55,536 nt of DNA from a virus (lineage: Duplodnaviria; Caudoviricetes): IMG/VR virus record IMGVR_UViG_3300020045_005976, positions 1-55,536 of that record; one strand, written 5' to 3'. The notes under the pieces are model-generated. The model ran no database searches. It was not told where the DNA came from and saw nothing but the letters and a program-made list of their open reading frames with translations. Below are positions 1,770 through 26,102 of the stretch, one piece after another; the first letter of the stretch is position 1, and each line of letters opens with the position of its first letter. The position numbers and the translations under genes are program-made.

Positions 1770-2171
1770 TCATAAATCGTATTGCTTCCATTTTCCGGTG
1801 GCGCGCAAAAGGGCTTCGCGAAGTTGTGCTGGTGTTGACAGCAAGCACGCAAGGCTCAAGCAGAATGGCCACTTGATTTCATGGAGATCACTTATAATCC
1901 GCGAATTAAGCTCATGAATAAAATTCAACTGCTCTCCGTATGTTTTTGTGTGCTTTTCAATCAGCGGCACCAGCACGTCTCGGGAATCGTAGTTTGGTAA
2001 AAAGTTAAGACAGTCACTAAGTCGTTGAGATTTATTGATGTCCGTCTCCCATGAGCACTTAACGTGCCCGTCGGGCGATCTCAATTGCCACAAAAGTTGA
2101 GTTCTCTCTATGGCTGATAAATTCCACCCGTCCAATTCAGCGCACGCTATGATTTGGTCGTTGATGCTCAT
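1770..2171 (-). CDS. Hypothetical phage protein
   Basis: Overlap-coupled ORF; C-terminal STPAQLREALLRATGKW. Confidence 0.6.
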   Translation of the reverse strand: MSINDQIIACAELDGWNLSAIERTQLLWQLRSPDGHVKCSWETDINKSQRLSDCLNFLPNYDSRDVLVPLIEKHTKTYGEQLNFIHELNSRIISDLHEIKWPFCLSLACLLSTPAQLREALLRATGKWKQYDL

Positions 2172-22778: not shown

Positions 22779-22984
22779 TATGTCGTCCGCCTTGGGTTTC
22801 AGAATGGTTTATTTGCAGTTCTGACTGGTATTCGGATTTCAGCCGATGCGAACCGCAGTCCAGATTGACGGCAAAAGAAATCGCCGATAGATATTGGAAC
22901 CACCTAAACGGGCTATCGAAAAACAGATTCACAGCCAAGCGCAAACCGGCAAGAACCAAGCGCAAATTCAGCCAGCATTATTAA
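22775..22984 (+). CDS. Hypothetical protein
   Basis: ATGA-coupled. Confidence 0.45.
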   Translation: MICRPPWVSEWFICSSDWYSDFSRCEPQSRLTAKEIADRYWNHLNGLSKNRFTAKRKPARTKRKFSQHY

Positions 22985-22985
22985 T

Positions 22986-23216
22986 ATGAACATCACAGTA
23001 AAAAAGCCAGATGGCAGCCGAAAGAAAATCGTCATTGACGCTTCATTGCTGCCGCCTAAATTCCCGGTTTTAGAGGCGTATTGCGTCATCCGATCATGTA
23101 AAAATTATCAAGATATTGCGTTTCACATTTCAGAAAAGTTTAGCAAATTTGGCGCATCTCAGGAATCAATCACGAATCTCGTTAACCAAATCAACGAACA
23201 ACTAAAGGACACATGA
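22986..23216 (+). CDS. Hypothetical protein
   Basis: Coupled ORF. Confidence 0.5.
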   Translation: MNITVKKPDGSRKKIVIDASLLPPKFPVLEAYCVIRSCKNYQDIAFHISEKFSKFGASQESITNLVNQINEQLKDT

Positions 23217-23438
23217 ATAACACCGACTTAATCAACCGTTTACGCTACCACGCATCGGAAACGATGACCGGCTATCCCGTCGAAAGGCGGGGGGGGGGAG
23301 CTTCTGCTTGAGGCCATCGCCGAAATTGATCGGCTGAATGCGGAAATCGCCAAAGAAAGGCAAAATGTCTGCTGGTTCACAGGGAAAGACTTCGGCGAAC
23401 CGCTTGCAGATAATCCACTTACACAATCCGAAAAATAA
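23213..23438 (+). pseudogene. Small phage gene frameshifted at a G10 tract
   Basis: Removing one G at 23289-23298 gives MNNTDLINRLR...ELLLEAIAEIDRLNAEI...SEK (74 aa). Confidence 0.6.
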
Positions 23439-23461
23439 TTCATCTTTTTTGCAATCAACCG

Positions 23462-23490
23462 TTGACAATCTTGGCGGTTAGGTTTAATCT
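23462..23490 (+). promoter_or_regulatory. Leaderless promoter with spacer operator
   Basis: TTGACA-17-TAATCT; ATG 6 nt later; spacer contains CTTGGCGGTTAG. Confidence 0.7.
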
Positions 23491-23496
23491 TTAGGC

Positions 23497-23751
23497 ATGA
23501 CAAACAACGCAACACAAAACGCCAGCATCAACACTAACGGTAACTTTTTTAAGCACGAATCCGCCGCCCGGTTAGGGTGGGGAGATTCGGGCATAGCCCA
23601 CAACTTCTACCCCACCGCCGAGGTGGGGGAATGTCTGACTGGATGGGAGTGGCGCCGTGGCGGATGCACCGAACAGGTGCATTACACCAAGGCGCAGATG
23701 AAGTGGCTCCCCAGGCTAGGACGAAACGGGGGCAACCCCGTCCGGCGTTAA
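23497..23751 (+). CDS. Hypothetical early protein (3' end overlaps the ribozyme)
   Basis: Leaderless start MTNNA shared with the 20394 gene. Confidence 0.55.
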   Translation: MTNNATQNASINTNGNFFKHESAARLGWGDSGIAHNFYPTAEVGECLTGWEWRRGGCTEQVHYTKAQMKWLPRLGRNGGNPVRR

Positions 23752-23770
23752 ATACGCCGCTGATGAGTCC
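23719..23770 (+). ncRNA. Type II hammerhead ribozyme
   Basis: GGAC GAAA CGGGG-GCAA-CCCCG TC/ CGGCG-ttaaata-CGCCG CTGATGA GTCC; all core nucleotides and three perfect stems present. Confidence 0.9.
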
Positions 23771-23811
23771 AACAATCGACATCCAGAAGCCCGAGCAACA
23801 AAATAAAAATT

Positions 23812-24021
23812 ATGAAATTAATCACATTAAGCGCACCCAGCGGCGGTGAAATCTATGTCTGCAAAAAATGCAATGACAAGATGAATGCGGGAAAAATCGT
23901 CATGCGAGACGTAAACGGCGAGCAATTTTGCCAGACCTTGCGCGGATTAACGAGCATCCCCAAGGCAGCATGTGATTGCTGCGCCGCGATCCGCGAAGGG
24001 TCGGTTGTTGAGAAAAAATAA
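23812..24021 (+). CDS. Small Zn-finger-like protein
   Basis: CKKC...CDCC; A-rich leader. Confidence 0.6.
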   Translation: MKLITLSAPSGGEIYVCKKCNDKMNAGKIVMRDVNGEQFCQTLRGLTSIPKAACDCCAAIREGSVVEKK

Positions 24022-24063
24022 AGGCGAAACGCCGGGGAGCAATCCCCGGCAACAAAATAAAAC

Positions 24064-24390
24064 ATGAAATACATCGTCCAACAAACATTTGAAACACTAG
24101 GCGATCCGTGCGCCAAAACTTTTGGATCAAAGTTCCATGCATCGGAATATTCCAACATTCTCAAATGCGCGGTTGCGCAAGCGGTCTCGGTGATGGACAC
24201 GCCGGAGCGTGGAGAAAATGCGTGCGCCATACTTTCTGAATCGGACGCTTGGTATGACGCGCTTGCGATTTGCGGATGGGTTTTTGGCGTTGACGGCGGG
24301 CGGATGAATGGAAGCGCTAGCAAATACGGAATTCGGGCAGGCGAATGCATCGCTGAAGCTGCGGTGAAGATTGAAGAGGTGGAATCATGA
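24064..24390 (+). CDS. Hypothetical protein
   Basis: A-rich leader; follows the GCAA hairpin at 24031-24050. Confidence 0.55.
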   Translation: MKYIVQQTFETLGDPCAKTFGSKFHASEYSNILKCAVAQAVSVMDTPERGENACAILSESDAWYDALAICGWVFGVDGGRMNGSASKYGIRAGECIAEAAVKIEEVES

Positions 24391-24578
24391 GACTAAACAA
24401 AAACTCAAAAGAGGCCGACCTTGTTCGGATGTTCGCCAACCTTGCATCCGATAGCGCGAGGGAGCGCAAGGAAATCGAAGACCTGCGGGAGGTCAGGGTA
24501 TCATATTACCACAAGGGTCGGCAGCAAGCTTTTATTCAGTGCGCCAAGAGTGTGGCGATTAAATTTTCAATAGATTGA
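24387..24578 (+). CDS. Hypothetical protein
   Basis: ATGA-coupled. Confidence 0.5.
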   Translation: MRLNKNSKEADLVRMFANLASDSARERKEIEDLREVRVSYYHKGRQQAFIQCAKSVAIKFSID

Positions 24579-24593
24579 TTTCGATTTAACTTT

Positions 24594-24809
24594 ATGCCAA
24601 CTCAAAAACAAATTGACGCTCATTCCAAGAATATGGACAGTTTTCGCAGGTTTTTATCCGATAAGGAAAAGCTGGCGCAGGCCAAAAAAGCTTATGCGAA
24701 ACGAAAAACCAGCGAACGCCGCAAGGAACTGCGAGACGAATTCCAGAAGCTGCGCGAGAAAGAGCGCGCCGAAGCGCGGCGCTCAAATGGTGGCAAACTC
24801 AAAAACTAA
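24594..24809 (+). CDS. Small basic helical protein
   Basis: K/R-rich ORF upstream of terL. Confidence 0.5.
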   Translation: MPTQKQIDAHSKNMDSFRRFLSDKEKLAQAKKAYAKRKTSERRKELRDEFQKLREKERAEARRSNGGKLKN

Positions 24810-24848
24810 GTGGTGTTCTGCGCGGTGCGGTGGTAGTGTGGCTGTTGG

Positions 24849-26102
24849 TTGAGGCGCATAATTACATTACCGAAGCTGCATTCGGCGCAAATTGAAATCG
24901 TCAAGGCGGTTGAACGCTTCCTTGTGATTTCAGGTGGGCGGCGATTTGGCAAGGGCGTCGTCGGCATCGGCGAAGGGTACAAGCGTGGGATTCACGGGGG
25001 GAAATGTCGCTGGATTTCGCCGTCTTACGCATCGGATTCGTTTCAGGCCGGTTGGAATATGGCCGTGAACCTGGCCAACCAAATACCCGGCGTTGACATT
25101 CACCAGCAGCGAAAAGAGTTTTCGTTTCGGCGGATTGGTGGCGGATTCCTGCAATTCAGGACAGCGGAGGAGCCAGACGGGTTGCGCGGTGAGGGCATCG
25201 ACTTTGTAATTTTCGACGAGGCGGCACACATTCGCGGCTTGAAGGATATTTGGGACCTATGTGTCCGTCCGTCACTTATGGACCGCAAGGGAAGCGCATG
25301 GTTTATCTCAACACCAAAAGGCCACAACGATTTCGCTGAATTCTTCAAGCGGGCTGAAATTGACAAGGATTGGCGCAGCTTTATTTTTCCAACTTGCTCG
25401 AATCCATATATCGAAAAGTCTGAAATTGAATCGATGCGAAAAGGGTTGCCGTCGCTTGTTGCTCGACAAGAAATTGACGCGGAATTTGTTCAACTCGCGG
25501 GCATGTTGTTCAAGCGGGAGTTGATTCGATTCATCGATGAGGAGCCGCAGAACGTGCGCTGGGTCAGGTCCTGGGATTTGGCGTTCACCGAGAAAACAAC
25601 GTCAGACTTCACCGCATCTGCGAAAATGGCCGTCGCTGCGGACGGGACAGTGATTGTATCAGACGTTATCCATTTGCGCGCGGATTGGCCTGCTGTAGTG
25701 CGTCTAATCAAGCATACCGCACAAATGGACGGTCCGACGGTCGTGCAGGGAATCGAAGTCGTCGGCGCTCAAGTCGGGATGCTGCAAACACTCATGGCCG
25801 ATCCGATGATGGTCGCGACTCCGTTTAAAGCCATTCAAGTGACGAAAGACAAAGTGACGCGGGCCTTGCCGCTGGTGGCGCGGGCCGAGCAAGGCAAGCT
25901 GGTTTTTGTCCGTGGCGCGTGGAATAAATCCGCGCTTGATGAGATTTCCGCATTTCCCGAAAGCGAACATGATGACCAAGTGGATGCCATGTCGGGCGGA
26001 CTCAACATGCTGTCCGAACCATCCCCGGCGTTTAAATCCACCAGTGAAATAATTACCGGGAAAAGTGATTTCGACATTGACAGAGTGAACTTTTTAGAAT
26101 AG
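24849..26102 (+). CDS. terL: Terminase large subunit
   Basis: GGRRFGKG, GLRGEGIDFVIFDEAA, ISTPKG, RSWDLA and HDDQVDA motifs. Confidence 0.95.
   Translation: MRRIITLPKLHSAQIEIVKAVERFLVISGGRRFGKGVVGIGEGYKRGIHGGKCRWISPSYASDSFQAGWNMAVNLANQIPGVDIHQQRKEFSFRRIGGGFLQFRTAEEPDGLRGEGIDFVIFDEAAHIRGLKDIWDLCVRPSLMDRKGSAWFISTPKGHNDFAEFFKRAEIDKDWRSFIFPTCSNPYIEKSEIESMRKGLPSLVARQEIDAEFVQLAGMLFKRELIRFIDEEPQNVRWVRSWDLAFTEKTTSDFTASAKMAVAADGTVIVSDVIHLRADWPAVVRLIKHTAQMDGPTVVQGIEVVGAQVGMLQTLMADPMMVATPFKAIQVTKDKVTRALPLVARAEQGKLVFVRGAWNKSALDEISAFPESEHDDQVDAMSGGLNMLSEPSPAFKSTSEIITGKSDFDIDRVNFLE

Follow-up and report, generated by a model that had tools for sequence, protein, structure and literature searches.

A predicted type II hammerhead ribozyme likely to cut a long phage transcript ahead of the terminase gene

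A 52-base element at positions 23719–23770 on the plus strand of a complete virus genome (55,536 bases with direct terminal repeats, analysed over its whole length and referred to here as the window) is very probably a type II self-cleaving hammerhead ribozyme whose likeliest role is to cut a long plus-strand phage transcript once. All of its core positions are canonical, and the original prediction of a complete type II hammerhead was confirmed part by part, with each named element present where it had been placed and the ribozyme lying on the strand of the surrounding genes (Table 1). Stem II is open-ended, while stems I and III are capped by loops, which is the topology that defines type II. 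The stems comprise 6, 4 and 6 pairs with no mismatch across the 16 helix pairs, and the requirement for a base other than G at position 17 is satisfied by C23742. With our own descriptor for types I, II and III, this was the only hammerhead motif in the window on either strand.

Table 1 Features of the hammerhead element and the adjoining reading frames. Positions are those of the window; the fetch pattern is the search pattern with which other class members were collected.
Feature	Position	Strand	Details
ORF84 (84 codons, orphan)	23497–23751	+	Extends 33 nt into the ribozyme
A directly 5′ of stem II	23718	+	A in 160 of 188 class members; outside the fetch pattern
Stem II, 5′ strand (11.4–11.1)	23719–23722	+	GGAC/GUCC pairing with 23767–23770
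Core G12-A13-A14	23723–23725	+	Columns invariant in 77 of 77 class members
Stem III hairpin (16 nt)	23726–23741	+	A15.1–U16.1 (A23726–U23741) and five G–C pairs
Stem III GCAA tetraloop	23732–23735	+	
C17 and predicted scissile bond	23742/23743	+	From the hammerhead consensus; boundary of ORF84 codons 82 and 83
Stem I hairpin (17 nt)	23743–23759	+	Five G–C pairs and one U–A pair
Loop I (5 nt)	23749–23753	+	
TAA ending ORF84	23749–23751	+	Opening triplet of loop I; seven nt past the cut
Core C3-U4-G5-A6-U7-G8-A9 (CUGAUGA)	23760–23766	+	
Stem II, 3′ strand (10.1–10.4)	23767–23770	+	G23767–C23722 is the G10.1–C11.1 closing pair
A directly 3′ of stem II	23771	+	A in 136 of 188 class members; outside the fetch pattern
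Next ORF (69 codons)	23812–24021	+	41 nt past the ribozyme; opens the run of small ORFs ahead of the large terminase

For the isolated 52-mer, the lowest-energy fold predicted is the hammerhead structure itself, at −23.9 kcal/mol. When 30–60 flanking bases were included, the best hammerhead-compatible fold lay 0.6–1.2 kcal/mol above the optimum, and an 81-base fold contained one competing pairing, between the core and bases 23705–23714. An outer helix formed by 23703–23717 and 23788–23799, which was also seen in the folds, was rejected as a feature of the element after its strength was equalled in 6.4% of shuffles and in 26% of genome segments of the same geometry. Between loop I and the 3′ tail, the best complement consisted of three contiguous pairs, one of which borrows a base of stem I. 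Across the class described below, loop I and the 3′ tail showed no excess of pairing over permuted tails by a crude measure.

A motif of this quality did not arise in random sequence. Run at lax settings on 300 random sequences of 55.5 kb each from a first-order Markov model, the descriptor returned two hits of type II and six of type III, none of which was as good as the element in the window and none of which had stems as long. By a rough calculation, a few chance motifs could still turn up when very many windows are scanned, and independent members were therefore sought. A fetch pattern was derived from the window element; it specified only the core and three pairs of stem II, left the gaps free, and had matches in at least 120 viral contigs of IMG/VR (loci L081–L200). 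In 113 of the 120 fetched loci, the descriptor identified a total of 206 hammerheads, with up to eight in a single locus; two or more copies were present in 42 of these 113 loci, and the window has one. Among the matches to the pattern alone, 137 of 152 form a stem I of at least 5 bp together with a stem III of at least 4 bp, and 61 of the 206 descriptor hammerheads do not fit the fetch pattern.

An alignment (A1) was assembled from 77 of 81 selected members with stem lengths near those of the window. The four rows left out comprised two that were identical in the element apart from the 5′ flank, one with two differences in flanking bases and one locus with a single stem III difference. In A1, 99.0% of the helix cells pair, although the members were chosen by a descriptor that requires pairing, so that the match to the core and part of the 99% are given by construction. 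Changes on both sides were found for 13 of the 16 pairs, the covariation score was reached by none of 500 shuffles, and pairing fell to 28–42% when the partners were slid. The double changes indicate that the helices, rather than their sequences, are what is kept. The window element shares with the class several features that lie outside the fetch pattern, namely the fourth pair of stem II, the A residues at −1 and +1, the first U of loop I, which is invariant in the class as represented by the 77-member alignment, and the pairing of a 16-nt stem III with a 17-nt stem I, the combination of lengths found most often among the class hammerheads (25 of 206).

A covariance model (R1) built from the 77 members of A1, with the window excluded, matched the window at 23716–23776 over its full length with a score of 69.3 bits (E = 3.7e-16); the second-best match in the window scored 11.7 bits. 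Control searches with R1 covered phage loci picked by terminase similarity (1.03 Mb) and gave no match in 527 kb and one 26-bit match in 499 kb. Judged by sequence, the element is a member of a widespread class of phage hammerheads, and the ribozyme appears to be a genuine, solid and ordinary type II hammerhead with predicted activity. The 26-bit match in the controls (L246, positions 2031–2101, minus strand, E = 8e-4) is located on a marine-type contig, on the strand opposite the terminase match.

Infernal searches with Rfam models, which had been put forward as a check on the original prediction, did not recover the element, as no hammerhead model reached its gathering score. A gathering scan of the whole window returned no hammerhead at threshold, and cmscan of two segments that hold the element, 301 and 91 bases long, returned none at E ≤ 10. 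Used alone, RF02276 (gathering threshold 37 bits) gave no match at E ≤ 10, and RF00008 gave a partial match in permuted order at 23741–23803 that scored 12.2 bits, below its threshold. In eight class loci that contain 30 descriptor hammerheads, the same gathering scan detected none of them (L081, L086, L087, L093, L094, L095, L100 and L109), and RF00008 scored 16.6 bits on one other class locus. We read the failure of Rfam to find these 30 hammerheads as a limited reach of the models, and we do not count the missing match against the element. The compact phage class would escape annotation pipelines that depend on these Rfam hammerhead models.

The ribozyme is embedded in a long array of plus-strand genes that extends from 11.6 kb to the end of the genome. 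Genes for a methylase, a sliding-clamp-like protein, DnaB and SSB precede it, and those for the large terminase (24849–26102) and the portal follow, with the predicted cut ~1.1 kb before the terminase gene. The coding density around the spacer that holds the ribozyme is high. A leaderless promoter had been proposed at 23462, but it was not listed by a sigma-70 scan; an exact TTGACA is present, without a passing −10 hexamer at 16–18 nt spacing. No terminator-like site was found on the plus strand between 22500 and 24541, and with none from 22500 to the ribozyme, read-through from upstream is as possible as initiation at a local promoter. Many starts in the genome lack a Shine–Dalgarno motif, and the motif TANNTTTG, the Bacteroidota −7 promoter element, was not enriched (31 found, 38 expected).

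Two further features of the neighbourhood were observed. The ORFs that begin at 23812 and 24064 have near-identical A-rich leaders followed by ATGAAA (23795–23817 and 24047–24069), possibly a repeated translation-initiation or promoter-proximal element. Further upstream, a run of ten G residues (23289–23298) divides what appears to be a single small gene at 23213–23438: the frame from the ATG at 23213 ends at 23309–23311 after 32 codons, and another frame carries on with protein-like sequence, starting at the G run and ending in a TAA at 23436–23438. A sequencing error in the homopolymer, phase variation of the tract and programmed or accidental frameshifting at this site are all possible explanations of the G run. 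With this split gene taken into account, most of the sequence ahead of ORF84 is coding.

Relatives of the region were sparse. A blastn search of 23300–24900 against phage records gave no relative of the locus, and a DnaB search of genome contigs likewise gave none. Terminase relatives were found in phage records, viral contigs and metagenome contigs, at no more than 39% identity over long segments, and the only class hammerhead match among them was the 26-bit one. No orthologous locus that would show conservation of the ribozyme at this position was found in the searched collections. A search for sequencing runs covering 22900–24900 likewise returned none, of RNA or otherwise.

The geometry proposed for the reading frame that begins at 23497 (ORF84) was borne out, in that its stop at 23749–23751 lies downstream of the predicted cut and within loop I. 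Loop I opens with a stop triplet in 46 of the 77 class members of the alignment, and the TAA of ORF84 is a feature of the ribozyme that happens to end the frame. ORF84 is the sole long plus-strand frame in the 373-nt space at 23439–23811. In 20,000 simulations in which the ribozyme was held fixed, an ATG-initiated ORF of at least 84 codons occurred in that space in 4.2% of cases, and in 8.3% when GTG and TTG starts were included. The codon score of ORF84, 0.111 per codon, is the best among the competing frames on both strands and is intermediate between those of the two reference sets, real 85-codon chunks having a mean of 0.212 (sd 0.084) and wrong-frame ORFs a mean of −0.074 (sd 0.13); it is closer to the real genes than to the wrong-frame ORFs, yet below the 95th percentile of the latter (0.167).

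Searches for homologues of ORF84 were uniformly negative. No Pfam or PHROG family was assigned, no relative was found in viral contigs or in a word search of 5.8 billion proteins, and a protein atlas gave no usable match. A protein collection that includes five of ten tested ORFs from the contig of the window contains neither the exact ORF84 nor a version of 46–147 aa that shares words with it. HMMER returned five hits among 1.84 billion representatives, all of them long proteins of 562–1247 aa; for the best of these (1217 aa), BLASTP showed the score to be the sum of many weak matches to repeats of 15–30 residues, and the hits were therefore rejected as spurious. ORF84 is absent from the gene calls of the source, its single-sequence AlphaFold model is uninformative (mean pLDDT 40.7), and its start lacks the A-rich leader common to the next two ORFs (23812 and 24064). 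We put the odds that ORF84 is translated at about even.

The position of ORF84 relative to the ribozyme is unusual for the class. We surveyed 192 non-identical class hammerheads for the longest upstream frame of at least 70 codons that ends within 150 bases, and 163 of them have such a frame. In 90 of these 163, the first base of the stop codon falls in the interval −6 to −1 relative to the ribozyme, most often at −2 (28) or −3 (22). Only 4 of the 192 hammerheads have a longest nearby frame whose stop lies within stem I or loop I; other surveyed frames stop in the core or 3′ strand (6) or upstream of the cut (5). When the threshold was lowered to 50 codons, 37 frames were found to enter and stop inside the ribozyme among the 192 hammerheads, most of them with a competitor that ends flush with it. 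Four cases were left without a flush-ending competitor, of which three are ORFs of 55–73 codons and one has no start codon. Such competitor-free overlaps are few and short, so that the overlap seen in the window is not a recurrent design. A stop placed flush before the ribozyme is the rule in the class, and ORF84 of the window departs from it.

The flush position in the window is occupied by a TAG at 23717–23719, but the frame that it ends has no more than 5 open codons. ORF84 would come into frame with this TAG, a stop position shared by 28 of the 163 class members, through a shift of one base at any point in 23702–23716, a segment that includes a CCCC run at 23709–23712 followed by AGG. The overlap may be the outcome of a recent one-base change from a flush arrangement; translational frameshifting near 23702–23716 is a purely speculative alternative.

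The 3′ tails of the class showed features of their own. Many of those in L081–L200 carry a motif that resembles a ribosome-binding site, as judged by eye. In 50 of 188 class tails, at least 5 contiguous bases are complementary to the CUGANGA core, typically as AUCAG right after stem II, where ~20 such tails would be expected from letter-shuffled tails. A tail of this kind could mask the core in a hairpin; in the tail of the window the complementary stretch is 4 bases only.

Hammerheads cleave by internal transesterification, and the position of the cut, after C17, is established by the hammerhead consensus. Once position 23770 has been transcribed, the RNA of the window would fold into the three-helix junction and cleave itself at the C23742–C23743 bond. 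This would yield a 5′ product with a 2′,3′-cyclic phosphate just past the stem III hairpin and a 3′ product with a 5′-OH where the stem I hairpin begins. The cut would separate the upstream message from one that carries ORF 23812 through terminase, and the two products, having different ends, would probably differ in stability. The location of the ribozyme in a run of small plus-strand ORFs, between the replication genes and those for terminase and portal, makes a role in transcript cutting the likeliest. We infer cleavage, the transcript and the biological role; the motif, its predicted fold and its class membership are what was found in the window.

The possibility that the motif arose by chance, or has decayed and no longer cleaves, would fit the lack of an Rfam match over threshold, the absence of a clear tertiary pseudoknot and the expectation that a very large scan of many windows meets rare chance motifs. 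It is a very improbable reading in view of the 69.3 bits scored against a model of 77 independent members, compared with 11.7 bits for the next site, of a core and 16 helix pairs that contain no mismatch, of class features shared outside the core, and of 300 random sequences that yielded nothing as good. The hammerhead explanation is independent of whether ORF84 is translated. That ORF84 is not a gene, so that the ribozyme occupies an untranslated spacer at 23439–23811 and the overlap is accidental, is a substantial possibility that we rate somewhat below even. ORF84 is an orphan that was not called at the source, its codon score is intermediate and its predicted fold is of low confidence, its start lacks the leader of the two ORFs that follow, and class hammerheads are intergenic; yet a chance 84-codon ATG frame appeared in only ~4–8% of simulations, the surrounding coding density is high, and the codon score favours the ORF84 frame over all others.

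Were ORF84 translated, the cut would remove its last two sense codons and the stop, which would leave a non-stop mRNA on which ribosomes stall at the cyclic-phosphate end and are rescued, with tagging of the protein and degradation of the message; conversely, a ribosome that reads or terminates on 23719–23751 would unfold the ribozyme, and translation would gate cleavage. These consequences would follow logically from translation of the frame, and a ribosome on the last eleven codons of ORF84 would be expected from its known footprint size to cover most of the ribozyme. We consider this reading unlikely overall. The frame is open from 23497 and stops seven bases past the cut, it is of a size seldom produced by chance, and its codon score is the best of the competing frames; on the other hand, no search returned a homologue, the source did not call the gene, and the codon score is below both the 95th percentile of wrong-frame ORFs and the mean of real genes. 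In addition, the stop is a loop triplet typical of the class (46 of 77), stops in the class are mostly flush (90 of 163) and rarely lie in stem I or loop I (4 of 192), and the sigma-70 scan did not list the promoter at 23462. A more elaborate version, which we regard as improbable, would make the ribozyme a built-in remover of the stop codon: its firing would shut off the ORF84 protein by way of ribosome rescue, hasten decay of the upstream fragment and release a packaging-gene message with a hairpin-capped 5′-OH end, and ribosomes on the last eleven codons would keep the ribozyme unfolded, so that the rate of translation would set the switch. We favour the reading in which the ribozyme cuts a long plus-strand transcript once, whatever the status of ORF84.

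Type II hammerheads of phages have been known in kind since the work of Perreault et al. in 2011, and the window adds one well-formed member. In that description they are common in bacteria, flank genes in prophages and possibly process long phage transcripts (PMC3088659). The element in the window resembles these type II hammerheads, represented by RF02276, in its catalytic core, permuted topology, intergenic context on the coding strand of a phage and proposed role, but RF02276 does not score it. In the published picture a gene is flanked by several copies; the complete genome in the window has one. According to Perreault et al., loop I and the 3′ tail of most type II hammerheads form a pseudoknot of at least four pairs, and many hammerheads lack that tertiary contact (PMC3088659); in the window a pseudoknot of this size is not evident, and an open frame runs into the element. 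The alignments in Dataset S1 of Perreault et al. could bear on whether the compact class is already catalogued.

With the compact phage class from IMG/VR, the window element shares the sequence and length of stem II and a loop I that begins with U and opens with a stop triplet. The difference lies in the upstream frame, since the class stop is usually flush with the 5′ end of the ribozyme and the only ORF of the window stops inside loop I. Three type II hammerheads of Desulfovibrio vulgaris, located near phage-like genes, are reported to cleave in vivo on the basis of cyPhyRNA-seq, a method that detects RNA ends of the kind predicted for the window (PMC8782182). They and the window element are both of type II and near hypothetical or phage-like genes, a likeness of description; theirs are on a bacterial chromosome, whereas the window is a free phage genome. 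For phage hammerheads in general, processing of long transcripts into pieces that meet different fates has been suggested (PMC3088659; PMC6765202), with the biological purpose described as still unproven (PMC6765202).

Full-text searches of the literature returned no paper on a natural hammerhead whose cut, placed ahead of a stop codon, gives rise to a non-stop message. The closest parallel is the arfA mRNA of E. coli, which is cut by RNase III. This programmed non-stop message is cut inside a hairpin before the stop codon and stays translatable, and its protein yield is tied to ribosome rescue (PMC10107115). The arfA arrangement involves a protein nuclease, is conserved and tested, and serves a gene of known function, whereas the window presents a predicted RNA self-cut within a putative ORF of similar geometry. 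If ORF84 is translated, the locus would offer a natural test case both of the competition between translation and ribozyme folding and of a non-stop message made by a ribozyme. If, in addition, the ribozyme serves to remove the stop codon, it would do with RNA alone what the arfA/RNase III circuit does with a protein nuclease.
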